64,000 bases of DNA from Escherichia coli O127:H6 str. E2348/69. GTDB lineage: Bacteria; Pseudomonadota; Gammaproteobacteria; Enterobacterales; Enterobacteriaceae. The stretch lies in the NCBI RefSeq assembly GCF_000026545.1, contig NC_011601.1; one strand, given 5' to 3'. The stretch's first letter is position 1. Each line of letters opens with the position of its first letter. The position numbers and the translations under genes were made by a program. The notes beneath the pieces are model-generated. The model searched no databases and had not been told where the DNA came from. It saw only the letters and a list, made by a program, of their open reading frames with translations. Positions 35,217 to 41,204 of the stretch are shown here, one piece after another.

Positions 35217-35870
35217 CTTAAGAAGTCCGTCGGTCAGGGGGAGCATGAACTCTCCATCCTCACCGGAGTTGAGCTGGTTGTCAAACGTGGTGAGACCATT
35301 GCACTGGTGGGCGAGTCGGGATCGGGTAAGTCAACCTTGCTGGCGATCCTCGCAGGGCTGGATGACGGCAGCAGTGGCGAAGTGAGTCTGGTGGGACAAC
35401 CGCTACATAATATGGACGAAGAAGCGCGGGCAAAGTTGCGCGCGAAGCACGTAGGCTTTGTTTTTCAGTCATTTATGTTAATTCCTACCCTTAACGCGCT
35501 GGAAAACGTCGAGCTTCCGGCGCTGCTGCGCGGTGAGAGTAGCGCAGAAAGTCGTAACGGGGCGAAAGCGTTGCTCGAACAGTTAGGGCTGGGTAAACGT
35601 CTTGATCATCTTCCGGCACAGCTTTCTGGCGGCGAACAGCAACGAGTGGCGCTGGCGCGAGCCTTTAATGGTCGACCTGATGTGCTGTTTGCCGACGAGC
35701 CCACCGGCAACCTTGACCGCCAGACCGGCGATAAAATTGCCGACCTGCTGTTTTCCCTCAACCGTGAGCATGGCACCACGTTGATTATGGTGACCCACGA
35801 CCTGCAACTGGCGGCACGCTGCGACCGCTGCTTACGGCTGGTGAACGGGCAGTTGCAGGAGGAAGTATGA
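35184..35870 (+). CDS. ybbA: ABC transporter ATPase YbbA (LolD/MacB-type)
   Basis: 228 aa, with GESGSGKST, LSGGEQQRVALARA and LFADEPTGNLD. It is divergent from tesA and overlaps its 5' end. Confidence 0.93.
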   Translation: MPAENIVEVHHLKKSVGQGEHELSILTGVELVVKRGETIALVGESGSGKSTLLAILAGLDDGSSGEVSLVGQPLHNMDEEARAKLRAKHVGFVFQSFMLIPTLNALENVELPALLRGESSAESRNGAKALLEQLGLGKRLDHLPAQLSGGEQQRVALARAFNGRPDVLFADEPTGNLDRQTGDKIADLLFSLNREHGTTLIMVTHDLQLAARCDRCLRLVNGQLQEEV

Positions 35871-38281
35871 TTGCACGTTGGTTCTGGCGCGAATGGCGTT
35901 CGCCGTCGCTATTAATTGTCTGGCTGGCGCTAAGCCTGGCGGTGGCCTGCGTGCTGGCGCTGGGCAATATCAGCGATCGCATGGAGAAGGGCTTAAGCCA
36001 GCAAAGCCGGGAGTTTATGGCGGGCGATCGGGCGTTGCGCAGTTCGCGCGAAGTGCCGCAAGCATGGCTGGAGGAAGCGCAAAAGCGCGGCCTGAAAGTC
36101 GGCAAGCAGCTGACTTTCGCCACCATGACCTTTGCAGGCGACACGCCGCAACTGGCGAACGTCAAAGCGGTGGATGATATCTACCCGATGTATGGCGAGC
36201 TACAAACCAATCCCCCTGGCCTGAAACCGCAGGCGGGCAGCGTATTGCTGGCCCCACGCCTGATGGCACTGCTTAACCTGAAAACGGGCGACACCATTGA
36301 CGTGGGCGATGCCACCTTGCGGATTGCCGGAGAAGTGATTCAGGAACCGGATTCCGGTTTTAACCCCTTCCAGATGGCTCCGCGTCTGATGATGAATCTG
36401 GCGGATGTCGATAAAACCGGAGCCGTGCAGCCGGGGAGTCGGGTCACCTGGCGCTATAAATTCGGCGGCAGCGAGAACCAGCTCGACGGCTATGAGAAAT
36501 GGTTGTTACCCCAGCTTAAACCTGAACAACGCTGGTACGGTCTGGAACAGGACGAAGGCGCGCTGGGGCGATCGATAGAACGTTCGCAACAGTTCCTGCT
36601 GCTTTCGGCGCTTCTGACCTTGCTGCTGGCGGTGGCGGCGGTTGCGGTGGCGATGAATCATTACTGTCGCAGTCGCTACGACTTGGTGGCGATCCTCAAG
36701 ACGCTGGGGGCAGGGCGAGCGCAACTGCGTAAGTTAATCGTCGGTCAGTGGTTGATGGTGCTGGCGCTTTCAGCCGTTACCGGTGGGGCGATAGGCCTGT
36801 TGTTCGAAAACGTGTTGATGGTGCTGCTCAAGCCCGTGCTACCTGCCGCTTTACCTCCTGCCAGCCTCTGGCCGTGGCTGTGGGCGCTCGGCACCATGAC
36901 GGTTATTTCGCTGCTGGTGGGGCTACGACCATACCGCCTGTTGTTGGCAACGCAGCCTTTACGCGTATTACGTAATGATGTGGTAGCGAACGTCTGGCCG
37001 CTGAAGTTTTATCTGCCGATTGTCACCGTGGTGGTTGTGCTGCTGCTCGCCGGATTAATGGGTGGCAGTATGCTGCTCTGGGCGGTGCTGGCGGGCGCGG
37101 TAGTACTGGCTTTGCTGTGCGGTGTGCTGGGCTGGATGCTGCTGAATGTACTTCGCCGCATGACGCTGAAATCGCTACCTCTGCGCCTGGCGGTTAGCCG
37201 CCTGTTACGTCAGCCGTGGTCAACGTTAAGCCAGCTTTCGGCATTTTCGCTCTCCTTTATGCTGCTGGCACTGTTGCTGGTGTTGCGTGGCGATCTGCTC
37301 GACCGTTGGCAACAACAACTGCCGCCAGAAAGCCCGAACTACTTTTTAATCAACATCGCTACGGAACAGGTTACGCCGCTGAAAGCGTTTCTCGCGGAAC
37401 ATCAAATAGTCCCGGAATCGTTTTATCCGGTGGTGCGGGCGCGGTTGACGGCGATTAACGACAAGCCGACAGAAGGCAATGGAGATGAGGCGCTCAACCG
37501 CGAGCTGAATCTCACCTGGCAAAATACGCGGCCTGATCATAACCCGATCGTCGCCGGTAACTGGCCGCCAAAAGCGGATGAAGTGTCGATGGAAGAGGGG
37601 CTGGCGAAACGCTTAAACGTTGCCCTCGGCGATACCGTGACTTTTATGGGCGATACCCAGGAGTTCCGCGCTAAAGTGACCAGCCTGCGCAAAGTGGACT
37701 GGGAAAGTCTGCGGCCTAATTTCTATTTTATTTTCCCGGAAGGGGCATTAGACGGGCAACCGCAGAGCTGGCTTACCAGTTTCCGCTGGGAGAATGGCAA
37801 CGGCATGTTGACGCAACTCAACCGCCAGTTCCCGACCATTAGCCTGTTAGACATTGGCGCGATTTTAAAACAGGTCGGTCAGGTGCTGGAGCAGGTAAGT
37901 CGGGCGCTGGAAGTGATGGTGGTGCTGGTCACCGCCTGCGGCATGTTGCTGTTGCTGGCGCAGGTGCAGGTGGGAATGCGTCAGCGTCATCAGGAGCTGG
38001 TGGTGTGGCGCACACTTGGTGCGGGGAAAAAACTGCTGCGCACGACATTGTGGTGTGAGTTCGCCATGCTCGGGTTTGTATCCGGCCTGGTGGCCGCAAT
38101 TGGTGCGGAAACGGCACTGGCGGTACTGCAATCGAAAGTGTTTGATTTCCCGTGGGAGCCAGACTGGCGATTGTGGATTGTTCTGCCGTGCAGCGGTGCG
38201 CTACTGCTGTCGCTTTGCGGCGGCTGGCTGGGTGCGCGACTGCTTAAGGGTAAGGCGCTGTTCAGGCAGTTTGCGGGGTGA
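35867..38281 (+). CDS. ybbP: FtsX-like ABC permease YbbP
   Basis: 804 aa with two FtsX-type TM bundles; it overlaps the ybbA stop by 4 nt. Confidence 0.93.
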   Translation: MIARWFWREWRSPSLLIVWLALSLAVACVLALGNISDRMEKGLSQQSREFMAGDRALRSSREVPQAWLEEAQKRGLKVGKQLTFATMTFAGDTPQLANVKAVDDIYPMYGELQTNPPGLKPQAGSVLLAPRLMALLNLKTGDTIDVGDATLRIAGEVIQEPDSGFNPFQMAPRLMMNLADVDKTGAVQPGSRVTWRYKFGGSENQLDGYEKWLLPQLKPEQRWYGLEQDEGALGRSIERSQQFLLLSALLTLLLAVAAVAVAMNHYCRSRYDLVAILKTLGAGRAQLRKLIVGQWLMVLALSAVTGGAIGLLFENVLMVLLKPVLPAALPPASLWPWLWALGTMTVISLLVGLRPYRLLLATQPLRVLRNDVVANVWPLKFYLPIVTVVVVLLLAGLMGGSMLLWAVLAGAVVLALLCGVLGWMLLNVLRRMTLKSLPLRLAVSRLLRQPWSTLSQLSAFSLSFMLLALLLVLRGDLLDRWQQQLPPESPNYFLINIATEQVTPLKAFLAEHQIVPESFYPVVRARLTAINDKPTEGNGDEALNRELNLTWQNTRPDHNPIVAGNWPPKADEVSMEEGLAKRLNVALGDTVTFMGDTQEFRAKVTSLRKVDWESLRPNFYFIFPEGALDGQPQSWLTSFRWENGNGMLTQLNRQFPTISLLDIGAILKQVGQVLEQVSRALEVMVVLVTACGMLLLLAQVQVGMRQRHQELVVWRTLGAGKKLLRTTLWCEFAMLGFVSGLVAAIGAETALAVLQSKVFDFPWEPDWRLWIVLPCSGALLLSLCGGWLGARLLKGKALFRQFAG

Positions 38282-38297
38282 TGACAGGTGTTAGATT

Positions 38298-38395
<98 letters not shown>

Positions 38396-38426
38396 ATGAA
38401 CAGTGTGCATTTTGGCAATAAATATG

Positions 38427-38453
38427 AAACCAACTGTCATGTCGGTTTTTTTA
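38427..38453. repeat. Left copy of a 27-bp direct repeat AAACC(A/G)ACTGTCATGTCGGTTTTTTTA; it also forms a hairpin followed by T7 on the + strand
   Basis: 26 of 27 positions are identical to 40006-40032. The last 21 nt (38433-38453) are identical to 40012-40032. It could act as the ybbP terminator. Confidence 0.8.
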
Positions 38454-38455
38454 AA

Positions 38456-38480
38456 GGCCGAAGGTGGTAAACCTTCGGCC
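38456..38480 (-). terminator. Perfect GC-rich hairpin GGCCGAAGG-N7-CCTTCGGCC just 3' of the candidate toxin ORF
   Basis: 9-bp perfect stem (10 bp if the flanking A-T pair is included), 18 nt after the TAA of the 27-codon ORF on the minus strand. Only 3 U follow before the second hairpin (38427-38453). Confidence 0.5.
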
Positions 38481-38498
38481 TTAGCTACGTTTCCTCAG

Positions 38499-38582
38499 TT
38501 ATTCAATAAATTGACGGATCAGTTCTAGCAGCGCGATTAGCGCCTTAAGAACGATGAGAACTTTATCGAGAAAAGTTTTCAT
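38499..38582 (-). CDS. Candidate type I toxin: 27-aa hydrophobic peptide MKTFLDKVLIVLKALIALLELIRQFIE (DinQ/TisB-like)
   Basis: Hand-translated from ATG 38582 to TAA 38499. GGGAG SD lies 6 nt upstream. The peptide is predicted to be a single amphipathic helix. I recall DinQ as MIDKAIIVLGALIALLELIRFLLQLLN, which shares the ALIALLELIR core. The ORF is shorter than the ORF-track cutoff. Confidence 0.55.
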   Translation of the reverse strand: MKTFLDKVLIVLKALIALLELIRQFIE

Positions 38583-38654
38583 CCGTTGCTCCCTTAAGGG
38601 AGAAAGACAATCACAGCTTACCCTTACGTTGCCTGTAACTATGATTTTCTTCAT

Positions 38655-38670
38655 GTGCTAGATGAGGACT
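38655..38670. repeat. Left copy of a perfect 16-bp direct repeat TGCTAGATGAGGACTG (predicted sRNA target site in the peptide mRNA 5' UTR)
   Basis: Identical to 39943-39958. It lies 73-88 nt upstream of the peptide ATG on the opposite strand. Confidence 0.75.
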
Positions 38671-38865
38671 GCCTCTCTCCAAATTAGAGCACCAGAATCA
38701 GCACCACCTGTATCCTGACCAGGACTTAAAAGTACTTTTCCGCACTGCGGTAATCCCTTGAGGCAGTATCACTACTAGCGTCGGGATTGTATCGCCAACA
38801 TAGCTGTTGTGTAAGTTCACAGAGATATTGCAATTGCCTCCGGATAAGTAAGGGGAGATTGCACT

Positions 38866-39912
38866 ATGCAAATGCAGCATCTGATGGTTGGCTATCCTAA
38901 GTACTACCAAACGGCCGATTATGCGTTGAGGCTTTCAGTGATGGCTGATATAGCAACAATGAGAATGAAGGCTCTGCACTTCTGGGATAAACACGGTATT
39001 TCTGCAGCTTCTGAAGCCTTTGGCGTGTCCTGCCGCACGCTTTACTGGTGGCGTCAGTTACTGAACAAGGAAGGACCTGAGGGGCTAATCCCGCACAGTA
39101 AGGCACCTCTGGTGCGACGAAAAAAACACTGGCATCCCGATGTGCTGAAAGAGATTCGACGCCTCAGGACAGAGCTGCCGAACCTCGGTAAAGAGCAGAT
39201 TTTTGTTCGCCTGAAGCCCTGGTGCGAACAGCGCTATCTGGCCTGTCCGAGTGTTTCCACCATCGGCAGAATGATCGCTGCCGCACATGATAAAATGCGG
39301 ATGATACCTGTGCGTCTGGGATCGCGGGGGAAGGCACTGCTTGTCAAAAAGCGGTCTGCCAAACCCCGCAGGCCAAAGCACTACCGCCCGGTAAAGACAG
39401 GTGAGCTCATTGGGATGGACGCCATTGAGCTCAGAATGGGCGAACTGCGTCGCTATGTCATCACCATGATCGACGAATGCAGCAATTACGCGCTGGCGCT
39501 GGCTGTGCCGTCACTCAACAGTGATATCGTCAATCACTTCTTCAGCCGCGCAGCCCGGTTGTTCCCGGTCGGTATCAGCCAGATAATCACAGATAACGGA
39601 AAAGAGTTCCTGGGAAACTTCGACAAAACGCTGCAGGAAGCCGCTATCAAACACCTCTGGACCTATCCCTACACGCCAAAAATGAACGCTATCTGTGAAC
39701 GTTTTAACCGGACGTTAAGAGAGCAGTTTATTGAATTTAATGAGATTTTACTCTTTGAAGATCTGGCGCTATTTAACCAGAAGCTGGCGGAATATCTGGT
39801 GCTGTATAACAGCAAAAGACCCCACAAGGCGCTCGCACTAATGACGCCCGTGGAATATATTTTAAAAGAGAATAAAAATTGCAATATGTGGTGGACCCAT
39901 ACAGCTGTTTGA
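38866..39912 (+). CDS. DDE transposase/integrase-core (rve) protein with an N-terminal HTH; IS481-family-like single ORF
   Basis: 348 aa, with AGGGGAG SD 8 nt upstream. The N-terminal HTH is AFGVSCRTLYWWRQ. The catalytic-core pattern is GMDAIEL...ITDNGKEF...PKMNAICERFNRTLREQF (D, D, E with the typical spacing). Confidence 0.85.
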   Translation: MQMQHLMVGYPKYYQTADYALRLSVMADIATMRMKALHFWDKHGISAASEAFGVSCRTLYWWRQLLNKEGPEGLIPHSKAPLVRRKKHWHPDVLKEIRRLRTELPNLGKEQIFVRLKPWCEQRYLACPSVSTIGRMIAAAHDKMRMIPVRLGSRGKALLVKKRSAKPRRPKHYRPVKTGELIGMDAIELRMGELRRYVITMIDECSNYALALAVPSLNSDIVNHFFSRAARLFPVGISQIITDNGKEFLGNFDKTLQEAAIKHLWTYPYTPKMNAICERFNRTLREQFIEFNEILLFEDLALFNQKLAEYLVLYNSKRPHKALALMTPVEYILKENKNCNMWWTHTAV

Positions 39913-39937
39913 ATATGTAGGCATCCTGACTTATAAT
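39909..39937 (+). promoter_or_regulatory. Near-consensus sigma70 promoter TTGAAT-17 nt-TATAAT
   Basis: -35 at 39909-39914 (overlapping the transposase TGA stop), a 17-nt spacer, and a perfect -10 at 39932-39937. The predicted TSS is around 39944, at the start of the 16-nt repeat. Confidence 0.55.
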
Positions 39938-39943
39938 TCACTT

Positions 39944-40031
39944 GCTAGATGAGGACTGTTTCATTTCTGCCCGGAACCACCAAGTCTTGGGCGGAAAAAA
40001 TAAAAAAACCGACTGTCATGTCGGTTTTTTT
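39944..40031 (+). ncRNA. Candidate ~88-nt antitoxin sRNA whose 5' end (UGCUAGAUGAGGACUG) is complementary to the 5' UTR of the 27-codon ORF mRNA
   Basis: It is defined only by the upstream promoter, the 16-nt complementarity to 38655-38670, and the hairpin (AAAAAAACCGAC-TGTCAT-GTCGGTTTTTTT) with a T7 run at 40002-40031. I have no expression data. Confidence 0.4.
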
Positions 40032-40032
40032 A
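40006..40032. repeat. Right copy of the 27-bp direct repeat; a bidirectional hairpin terminator between the candidate sRNA and selU
   Basis: See 38427-38453. The A7/T7 arms flanking CCGAC/GTCGG give a U-run in both orientations. Confidence 0.8.
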
Positions 40033-40094
40033 TATCTGTATTCTGGTGCAACCATTCTGTTCTCACGACAATCGCCGTTTCAGAATACCGCCCA

Positions 40095-41204
<1,110 letters not shown>

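Follow-up and report, generated by a model that had tools for sequence, protein, structure and literature searches.

Evidence for an AgrB-type antitoxin sRNA gene beside a second chromosomal DinQ-like toxin gene in the ybbP-mnmH interval of Escherichia coli

The window analysed here, a stretch of 64,000 nt, holds the segment of the E. coli E2348/69 chromosome between ybbP and mnmH (selU), in which a short toxin gene on the minus strand and a predicted sRNA gene on the plus strand are separated by an insertion sequence. The toxin gene (38499–38582) encodes a 27-aa peptide, MKTFLDKVLIVLKALIALLELIRQFIE, annotated in RefSeq as 'damage-inducible type I toxin DinQ' (WP_349808740.1); the translation was checked. 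The peptide scored 40.9 bits against the NCBIfam model toxin_DinQ (NF041472; cutoff 30) and 24.5 bits against DqlB (NF041473), under the cutoff of 35, and the coding sequence together with its leader shows about 70% DNA identity to canonical dinQ. The insertion sequence, on the plus strand, is an IS481-family element with a body of 1096 bp (38808–39903) and a transposase ORF at 38866–39912. It is flanked by 5-bp target duplications, GCTGT, at 38803–38807 and 39904–39908 (38803–39908 in all), and it interrupts the toxin–antitoxin locus, of which it is not a component.

The sRNA gene lies at 39944–40033 on the plus strand (about 88–90 nt, predicted start), a position without an annotated feature in RefSeq. 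Its promoter (39909–39937) consists of a −35 hexamer TTGAAT (39909–39914), a 17-nt spacer and a −10 hexamer TATAAT (39932–39937), as a preliminary description of this DNA had proposed. It matches the consensus at 10 of 12 positions, is identical in the allele free of the insertion and was the sole plus-strand promoter-like site returned by the promoter scan within 38200–40300. The other family loci listed also have a −10-like hexamer a few nt upstream of the seed. The Rfam AgrB model (RF02891) covers 39945–40033 over its entire length (model positions 1–84 of 84) with 53.6 bits against a gathering score of 40 (E = 1.4e-07); the same model gives 106–108 bits for K-12 agrA and agrB and 61.6 bits for a plasmid homologue.

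The 90-nt RNA (39944–40033) folds with −33.9 kcal/mol (z = −5.4 against shuffles) into the AgrB architecture: a 5' tail left largely unpaired, then a stem-loop, then an intrinsic terminator at the 3' end. A weak hairpin is predicted in the tail, and opening nt 1–16 costs only 2.1 kcal/mol. Antisense sequence occupies 39944–39968, with nt 1–15 perfectly complementary and nt 16–25 continuing the duplex with G-U wobbles and a single bulged A. Stem-loop 1 (39966–39995, CUGCCCGG...UUGGGCGG) is recognised by the Rfam model, the alignment and the fold, and carries the family-conserved CCACCAA loop on a stem CUGCC/GGCGG whose K-12 counterpart is CCAGC/GCUGG. In an alignment of 26 family sequences, 9 of 16 predicted pairs still pair after changes on both sides, and compensatory changes are seen in stem-loop 1 and terminator alike. 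The terminator scan called 40000–40033, terminator-like in both directions, which encloses the hairpin A7-CCGAC-TGTCAT-GTCGG-T7 (40002–40031) already noted in the preliminary description. Promoter and terminator are consensus matches, and a discrete RNA that represses the toxin is the predicted product.

The leader of the toxin gene could be read by comparison with the family. A Shine-Dalgarno (SD) sequence AAGGGAG (38589–38595) adjoins an anti-SD 'element 3', GUCUUUCUCCC (38598–38608), the two together spanning 38589–38608 on the minus strand. Here CUCCC/GGGAG forms the hairpin that closes over the SD, and in the fold of the 5'-truncated RNA GGAGAGAGGCAGUC takes its place as partner of element 3. 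Further upstream is the family-conserved 5' UTR motif, AAGUCCUGG...ACAGGUGGUGC in the mRNA (38701–38727, minus strand). Downstream of the gene a hairpin at 38454–38482 (GGCCGAAGG...CCUUCGGCC, minus strand) would terminate the toxin mRNA.

The toxin is most likely transcribed from a minus-strand promoter with a −10 hexamer TACAAT at 38786–38791 and a start near 38779, which would give a leader of about 197 nt. This assignment follows family spacing: a strong −10 was found 42–71 nt upstream of AAGUCCUGG in 30 of 32 family loci, and the distance is 58 nt here against 54 nt in K-12 dinQ, whose start was mapped. The native −35 is poor, and in E2348/69 it is replaced by the insertion. The 5' end of the predicted transcript, GCUAGUAGUGAUACUGCCUC, pairs with the sRNA target as a self-lock; −10 hexamer, start and this 5' end together occupy 38760–38791. 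The extended −10 candidate TGCTCTAAT (38683–38691, minus strand), earlier suggested as the toxin promoter, is present, but the promoter scan passed over its hexamer TCTAAT because position 2 (the −11 A) is not an A. It was rejected; it lies within the leader that is transcribed in K-12 dinQ, and the family −10 is about 100 nt upstream. With a start near 38779 the sRNA target would thus be internal, at +109 to +124 of the leader of about 197 nt, and not, as had been supposed, right at the beginning of one of about 95 nt.

LexA control of the toxin was also considered. A scan for the simple pattern alone found no CTG-N10-CAG box in the insertion-free locus or in the window outside the insertion, whereas K-12 dinQ has one at its promoter. 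The missing box speaks against LexA control and makes SOS control of this toxin unlikely, even though the RefSeq label of the gene reads 'damage-inducible'.

The link between the two genes is a repeated 16-mer. The window contains exactly two copies of TGCTAGATGAGGACTG, at 39943–39958 and at 38656–38671, and both are on the plus strand. The two exact same-strand copies had been recognised before; the upstream one had been placed at 38655–38670, one position off, and so lies 74–89 nt, not 73–88 nt, upstream of the minus-strand ATG at 38582. Matches to the 16-mer with up to two mismatches averaged 0.03 by chance, and two were reached in none of 100 dinucleotide-preserving shuffles. If two mismatches are allowed, the repeat extends to 22 nt (38650–38671 and 39937–39958). 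The sRNA target in the toxin 5' UTR spans 38657–38680 on the minus strand (about +100 to +123 of the mRNA), with the perfect part at 38657–38671 and the equivalent of 'element 2', GGAGAGAGG, at 38672–38680. In position it is the homologue of G88-A119, the segment of K-12 dinQ that AgrB targets (cf. PMC5066626).

Pairing was computed from the energy of the hybrid and the cost of opening each partner. An RNAduplex calculation on the two full-length RNAs was discarded as meaningless because it ignores intramolecular structure. Nucleotides 1–16 of the sRNA form a hybrid with the target of −31.1 kcal/mol, net −16.7 after opening costs (−39.7 for 25 nt). The first 16 nt of AgrB with dinQ give −22.7, net −13.4, and cross pairs with K-12 AgrA, AgrB and dinQ reach a net −8 at best. 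Perfect complementarity is limited to 15–16 nt here, compared with 30/31 for AgrB. Four of the differences beyond the seed replace C by T in the sRNA and leave G-U pairs in place, so that a 24-bp duplex with one bulge remains.

Co-variation of seed and target, suggested earlier as a check across strains, was examined in the family. The conserved 5' UTR motif was used as a genome search pattern, and about 50 enterobacterial dinQ-like loci were recovered; about 60 of the 112 genome-scan matches were high-GC, mostly actinobacterial, apparent chance coding matches and were removed by GC content. Across 32 family loci whose seeds differ from one another, seed and target of the same locus scored 16.2 out of 18 on average, against 6.0 for non-cognate combinations. 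The cognate pair was strictly best in 29 loci, which none of 10,000 permutations equalled. Seed and target thus co-vary across the dinQ/agrB family. The locus itself is at least 99% identical within E. coli, so this co-variation comes from paralogous loci and not from the ybbP-mnmH lineage.

A kissing contact between the CCACCAA loop of the sRNA and a conserved GGUGGUG of the mRNA was considered and left unsupported. The loop motif is missing from several family sRNAs (e.g. L012, L048, L050, L063 and L110), the dinQ literature examined makes no mention of such a contact, and the mRNA motif, being fixed by the search pattern, is constant in the loci compared.

Together these results indicate that 39909–40033 is very probably a real sRNA gene, an ordinary relative of AgrB beside a second copy of the DinQ toxin. 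We are accordingly confident, if short of certain, that the segment comprises the promoter, body and terminator of an AgrB-family antitoxin sRNA serving a second chromosomal DinQ-like type I toxin–antitoxin locus. Both genes are homologous to their dinQ-agrB counterparts and their RNAs are complementary, and the ybbP-mnmH locus is, on its sequence, a second chromosomal dinQ/agrB-type locus of E. coli. From this kinship we infer the toxicity of the peptide.

The sRNA gene could instead be a decaying, AgrA-like relic, an AgrB homologue that is no longer an effective antitoxin because its complementarity has shrunk from an ancestral length of about 33 nt to about 16 nt. The repeat is indeed shorter, 16 nt against 22–37 nt in most family loci, and K-12 AgrA, with 25/31 matches, neither binds nor represses (PMC3567139; PMC5066626). 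In about 190 E. coli genomes, moreover, the toxin start and the target are lost and the sRNA gene is kept, so that the pair is not under absolute joint constraint. The mismatches of AgrA, however, disrupt its 5' seed, whereas the 5' 15–16 nt of this sRNA are perfect and accessible, the duplex persists past the seed through G-U pairs, and the net energy for the first 16 nt surpasses that of AgrB with dinQ. The seed is also conserved in three Escherichia species: E. ruysiae and Escherichia sp. E1V33 carry it without change at this chromosomal site, with differences elsewhere in the sRNA. The sRNA promoter, too, is near consensus. We consider decay to a relic quite unlikely.

If the sRNA is a working antitoxin, its action is best explained by the DinQ structural switch. 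In dinQ a hairpin opens and closes over the Shine-Dalgarno sequence and RNase III cleavage contributes; the switch is backed by SHAPE, in vitro translation and mutagenesis, and the authors explicitly contrast it with the standby mechanism of tisB (Kristiansen et al. 2016, PMC5066626). In a leader of this type, elements pair in mutually exclusive combinations (1:2, 2:3, 3:4) that govern access to the SD. By homology, the primary toxin transcript would be translationally inert, with its 5' end paired to the region around +97 to +123 and the SD held in the CUCCC/GGGAG hairpin. After a putative 5' processing step, GGAGAGAGGCAGUC (+100 to +113) would pair with the anti-SD element and free the SD. 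The accessible 5' tail of the sRNA would then bind +109 to +123 perfectly, with G-U pairs extending over +100 to +108. Such binding would capture the activating element and let the SD hairpin re-form, and the duplex of sRNA and leader would probably be a substrate of RNase III.

Folding in silico moved in the expected direction. Removal of at least 20 nt from the 5' end of the complete transcript raised accessibility of the target from 0.16 to 0.47 and of the SD from 0.01 to 0.14, and blocking the target and element 2 returned the SD to 0.01. The change is slight, however, and varies with the 3' boundary that is chosen: when the transcript was cut at AUG+45, the full-length RNA gave the opposite result, with an SD accessibility of 0.38. 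This small opening and its reversal lend the switch weak computational support.

The preliminary description had taken ribosome standby as its model, which is not the published mechanism of dinQ/AgrB (PMC5066626). Blocking of a standby site by the sRNA, the mode of action of IstR-1 on tisB and of OrzO on zorO, in place of an effect on an SD hairpin, would fit a target whose distance upstream of the start codon is too great for the sRNA to cover the ribosome-binding site itself. It would also fit the weak computed switch, and a BLASTn study reported that zor genes and plasmid dinQ genes resemble each other over a leader segment (PMC11264685). Against standby, the locus is homologous to dinQ, where the structural switch is supported, and counterparts of elements 2, 3 and 4 can be made out in its leader. 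No Rfam IstR match was listed, and the only OrzO-P match (24.1 bits against 60) was on the minus strand over the terminator. Standby blocking is in our judgement decidedly improbable, and the DinQ-type switch is preferred.

That the 16-mers are a by-product of the insertion (terminal repeats or target-site duplications), as their arrangement as direct repeats on either side of it might suggest, or a chance repeat without RNA–RNA function can be dismissed with near certainty: they lie 137 bp and 40 bp outside the mapped ends, chance predicts next to none, and both are present in insertion-free genomes, the element occupying the site in only 5 genomes against 1135 to 1326 carriers of the locus. 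The insertion-free allele reads ...CAACATAGCTGTTTGAATATG... and keeps the two 16-mers about 180 bp apart, which answers the question, raised at the outset, of whether they are IS termini. The pair is thus independent of the insertion.

Three natural alleles can be compared: intact, split by the insertion, and toxin-deleted with an orphan sRNA. In a further reading, the lineage has been remodelled for orthogonality to canonical dinQ-agrAB, the orphan sRNA has a second role, and the insertion rewires the toxin:antitoxin ratio in a pathogen. Orthogonality is hinted at by the new seed, by pairing cut to 16 nt plus the G-U extension and by the absence of a LexA-type box. Toxin-deleted genomes that keep the sRNA could mean a second, toxin-independent target or role. 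In E2348/69 the insertion, by taking the place of the toxin −35 and driving transposase read-through into the sRNA promoter, might shift the ratio. We regard this remodelling as unlikely.

The sRNA gene was present in 1326 of 5426 complete E. coli genomes (about 24%), and the locus gave no match on plasmids, being chromosomal only; match counts place canonical dinQ-agrAB in almost all E. coli genomes. The main practical value of this work is annotation: an sRNA gene carried by about one complete E. coli genome in four lies where RefSeq has no feature. The locus also lends itself to asking what minimum AgrB-type seed length still controls a toxin, and it lets insulation between co-resident DinQ-type modules be probed. 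Within the literature library searched, no paper names E2348 alongside dinQ or agrB, and none gives the seed sequence. The dinQ family, including chromosomal dinQ-like genes co-resident with dinQ, was nevertheless already published (Kristiansen et al. 2016, PMC5066626); the novelty implied by the preliminary description is not justified, and no new mechanism is revealed.

With tisB/istR-1 and zorO/orzO the locus shares a divergent, non-overlapping layout, a short seed at the 5' end of the sRNA and a target far upstream of the start. Their primary transcripts are inert and activated by 5' processing, as proposed here. It has no sequence or Rfam membership in common with them, and their published mechanism is a standby block (PMC5066626). 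Closer are the dql genes (dqlA/dqlB) of Enterobacteriaceae, DinQ homologues that, as here, lie outside arsR-gor (PMC5066626; PMC12365149; T1TAdb, PMC8594479). Fourteen were published, with sigma-70 promoters and no SOS requirement, some sharing a strain with dinQ (PMC5066626), and sRNA partners are predicted for them in T1TAdb (PMC8594479). Validation of DqlB/agrB of pOXA-48 rested on toxicity, on rescue in trans and on mutations of the seed with compensatory changes (PMC12365149). That system is a plasmid-borne addiction module with 35-nt complementarity, whereas the ybbP-mnmH locus is confined to the chromosome and its peptide falls to the DinQ model and not to the DqlB model.

The preliminary description had likened the layout to AgrB/dinQ, a comparison borne out by the Rfam and NCBIfam scores. 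K-12 dinQ-agrAB (arsR-gor; Weel-Sneve et al. 2013, PMC3567139; Kristiansen et al. 2016, PMC5066626; RF02891) differs from the present locus in its chromosomal site, in having two sRNA genes instead of one and in its seed, for which the predicted cross-pairing is weak. It also differs in the GTG start codon of dinQ, where the present gene has ATG, in its LexA-type box and longer perfect pairing, and in the distance from the leader motif to the sRNA gene, 385 nt to agrB in K-12 and about 140 nt in the insertion-free form here. Both loci encode a hydrophobic 27-aa toxin, the two peptides being about 61% identical over 23 residues by hand alignment with the ALIALLELIR core in common, behind a leader of about 190–200 nt with shared conserved motifs. 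In both, a divergent, non-overlapping sRNA of about 85–90 nt is built of a 5' tail antisense to the corresponding leader segment, a stem-loop with a CCACCAA loop and a terminator.

The predicted sRNA gene (39944-40033, + strand) and the DinQ-like toxin gene (38499-38582, − strand) are located between ybbP (35867-38281, +) and mnmH/selU (40095-41189, −), and over 38250-40150 the sequence matches the E. coli E2348/69 chromosome NZ_CP059840.2 at 100% identity. The promoter scan called a single + strand promoter-like site in 38200-40300, TTGAAT (39909-39914) and TATAAT (39932-39937) with a 17-nt spacer, and the terminator scan called the hairpin with A7 and T7 runs at 40000-40033 (+); both elements had been proposed in the preliminary description and were confirmed. 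The 90-nt sRNA folded far more stably than shuffled controls (z = −5.4). Rfam AgrB RF02891 matched 39945-40033 (+) over its full length with 53.6 bits (gathering score 40), compared with 108 bits for K-12 agrB, 106 for agrA and 61.6 for a plasmid homologue. The minus-strand ORF 38499-38582 encodes MKTFLDKVLIVLKALIALLELIRQFIE, which scored 40.9 bits against NCBIfam toxin_DinQ (cutoff 30) and is named 'damage-inducible type I toxin DinQ' in RefSeq. Canonical dinQ shares about 70% DNA identity with the toxin CDS and part of the leader. No LexA-type CTG-N10-CAG box was found at the toxin locus by pattern scan, and the 'damage-inducible' label probably stems from the family model and not from a property of this copy. 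The AgrB match, the DinQ match and the homologous position of the sRNA target together indicate that the locus is a second predicted type I toxin-antitoxin module of the dinQ/agrB type, paralogous to canonical dinQ.

Of 32 family loci, 30 have a strong −10 (TATAAT in most cases) that precedes AAGUCCUGG by 42-71 nt. This distance amounts to 54 nt in K-12, whose start has been mapped, and to 58 nt at the E2348/69 locus, where TACAAT (38786-38791, −) is the predicted toxin −10 and transcription would begin near 38779; the starts of both transcripts are predictions from consensus and homology. Given this family-wide position, the leader would be about 197 nt long with the sRNA target internal, and not, as first suggested, about 95 nt long with the target at its extreme 5' end. 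The toxin promoter originally put forward, TGCTCTAAT (38683-38691), was rejected, as it has no −11 A, was not called by the scan and lies inside the dinQ-homologous transcribed leader. On the predicted − strand mRNA, the equivalent of element 2 (UUUGGAGAGAGG, +97 to +108) is followed by the sRNA target (+109 to +123), the equivalent of element 3 (GUCUUUCUCCC, +172 to +182), the Shine-Dalgarno (SD) AAGGGAG (+185 to +191) and the start codon AUG (+198); in the DinQ-type model, elements 1-4 would form mutually exclusive pairings that control access to the SD. The predicted mRNA 5' end, GCUAGUAGUGAUACUGCCUC (38760-38779, −), is similar to the sRNA seed GCUAGAUGAGGACUG and, like it, pairs with the target region. 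By analogy with DinQ element 1, it may serve as a built-in competitor or lock.

The 16-mer TGCTAGATGAGGACTG occurs exactly twice in the window, both times on the + strand, at 39943-39958 and, within the toxin leader, at 38656-38671; shuffles gave a chance expectation of 0.03 for 16-mer matches. The pair had been recognised before with the first position correct and the upstream copy placed one base too low. It had also been asked whether the 16-mers are the termini of an insertion sequence. An IS481-family element is present at 38808-39903 (+; transposase ORF 38866-39912, +), with a 5-bp flanking duplication GCTGT. IS-free genomes, which read ...CAACATAGCTGTTTGAATATG..., retain both 16-mers about 180 bp apart, with the same sRNA promoter and terminator, so the 16-mers are not IS ends. 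Only 5 genomes carry the element at this site. It is inserted exactly between the divergent promoters (38803-39912) and upstream of both: 16 nt separate it from the predicted toxin −10, and the sRNA −35 follows directly. At that position it removes the native toxin −35; CTTACA or TACACA from the IS end is a candidate replacement with usable spacing. The transposase ORF overruns the IS end and its TGA stop (39910-39912) falls inside TTGAAT, the sRNA −35, so transcription of the transposase could continue into the sRNA gene.

In model energies, sRNA nt 1-16 formed a hybrid of −31.1 kcal/mol with its own target (net −16.7 after opening costs), compared with −22.7 kcal/mol (net −13.4) for AgrB nt 1-16 with dinQ. 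The pairing extends across element 2 with four G-U pairs and a single bulged A, to a total of 24 bp and −39.7 kcal/mol. Cross-pairs with K-12 AgrA, AgrB or dinQ were far weaker; none was more stable than −8 net.

Because E. coli carriers hardly differ at this locus, co-variation was tested across the family. One genome per species was scanned with a conserved leader motif, which yielded about 50 enterobacterial loci, paralogous and orthologous, with part of the leader fixed by the search motif. At 40 of them a + strand downstream gene repeats the leader segment of its own locus, and in each of these genes a −10-like hexamer precedes a GTTAG-like start by a few nt, with a variable tail, then a stem-loop and a terminator after it. 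Among the 32 loci with distinct seeds, the mean seed/target score was 6.0 for non-cognate and 16.2 of 18 for cognate pairs. In 29 loci the cognate sRNA was strictly the best partner, and 0 of 10,000 permutations reached the observed cognate mean; seed and target change together, a co-variation that the preliminary description had proposed to check across strains. Compensatory changes were found in 9 of 16 pairs of the sRNA stem-loop and terminator. The signature, read from sequence comparison, is that of a conserved sRNA scaffold with a rapidly co-evolving antisense seed.

Loci of the canonical arsR-gor type (L003, L051, L069, L074, L086, L099) were found in E. coli, Shigella flexneri, E. ruysiae and E. 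whittamii. Seeds at apparently orthologous dinQ-agrAB loci vary between species and strains (e.g. GTTAGATAAGAACTCTC, GTTAGATGACGACTATC, GTTAGATGTGGGCAATC) and the sRNAs change in step, which indicates fast seed turnover. The repeat search found no sRNA partner at L026, L034, L064, L072, L088 (Photorhabdus) and L112 (E. whittamii), where the leader motif is present. Tandem toxin-leader repeats lie 879 nt apart at L088 and 548 nt apart at L112, which suggests arrays of toxin copies. The sRNA loop CCACCAA (39975-39983) is complementary to GGUGGUG (38701-38708) in a predicted hairpin loop of the leader. Both are conserved, and a loop-loop contact is conceivable; several family sRNAs lack the CCACCAA motif.

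In K-12 the primary dinQ transcript is inert, and translation occurs from a form processed at +44, in which pairing of element 2 with the anti-SD element 3 opens the SD hairpin. AgrB spans element 2, whereupon the hairpin re-closes and RNase III cleaves (PMC3567139; PMC5066626). By homology, the E2348/69 pair would most likely act like this switch. In folds of the complete toxin transcript, accessibility was 0.16 for the target and 0.01 for the SD at full length, 0.47 and 0.14 after removal of at least 20 nt from the 5' end, and 0.01 for the SD with target and element 2 blocked. When the transcript was cut at AUG+45, the full-length RNA gave an SD accessibility of 0.38, opposite to the switch model. 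The folding agrees with a switch in direction only and the effect is small; the switch at this locus is inferred by homology with dinQ. Transcription, processing, toxicity and repression at this locus would likewise be expected from its relatives.

The sRNA region was found in single copy, always chromosomal, in 1326 of 5426 complete E. coli genomes, and RefSeq annotates nothing at the sRNA position in these carriers. The toxin start and target region were found in 1135 genomes, which by difference leaves about 190 genomes with an orphan sRNA. Identity across the locus was at least 99% in almost all E. coli carriers. E. ruysiae and Escherichia sp. E1V33 have the module at the same site, and K-12-derived strains among the listed matches matched only repeat sequence beside ybbP. 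Comparison with the empty-site allele of the ybbP-mnmH location (L005) delimited the inserted module to about 38410-40081. Two alleles, L118 (E. coli JBEHAAB-19-0176) and L119 (E. coli 3347558), have lost 108 bp between GATGAGAAC and GATGAGGAC (window ~38564-38671). The loss takes the toxin N-terminus, start codon, Shine-Dalgarno and most of the sRNA target and leaves the sRNA gene intact; in one of the two alleles RefSeq nevertheless has a chimeric ORF of 78 nt under the name 'dinQ'. REP-type repeats downstream of ybbP (38319-38401) matched Rfam ES036 on the minus strand (40.3 bits vs 37.6) and naRNA4 below threshold, and these are ordinary repeat-derived hits. The empty site has additional REP copies in place of the module. 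In a 40-nt direct repeat (38414-38453 and 39993-40032, 83% identical), the left copy is a degenerate version of the sRNA terminator; it lies past the terminator of the toxin, at the leftmost edge of the module. The empty site lacks both copies, and the repeat may have been left behind by a second sRNA gene or by a tandem module.

The dinQ-like (dql) genes, of which 14 are listed in the literature, have been known since 2016 from chromosomes and plasmids, in some cases alongside dinQ (PMC5066626), and their sRNAs are predicted in T1TAdb (PMC8594479); curated models recognise both sRNA and toxin here. Among the papers covered by the literature search, none names the E2348/69 locus or prints its seed. 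Judged by its sequence, the locus is an experimentally uncharacterised, sRNA-unannotated further dinQ/agrB member. Its 16-mer target lies at a position homologous to the AgrB site G88-A119 of dinQ. The ribosome standby analogy drawn earlier is unlikely to apply: standby is the mechanism of tisB and zorO, and the dinQ authors describe theirs as different (PMC5066626). For plasmid DqlB/agrB, toxicity, rescue, and seed and compensatory mutations were all confirmed (PMC12365149), so this design is functional beyond K-12. K-12 dinQ has a LexA-type CTG-N10-CAG box, whereas the pattern scan found none at the E2348/69 copy. Mildly unusual here are the perfect pairing, which is short and extended by wobbles, the missing SOS box, the single sRNA gene, and the natural IS-split and toxin-deleted alleles.
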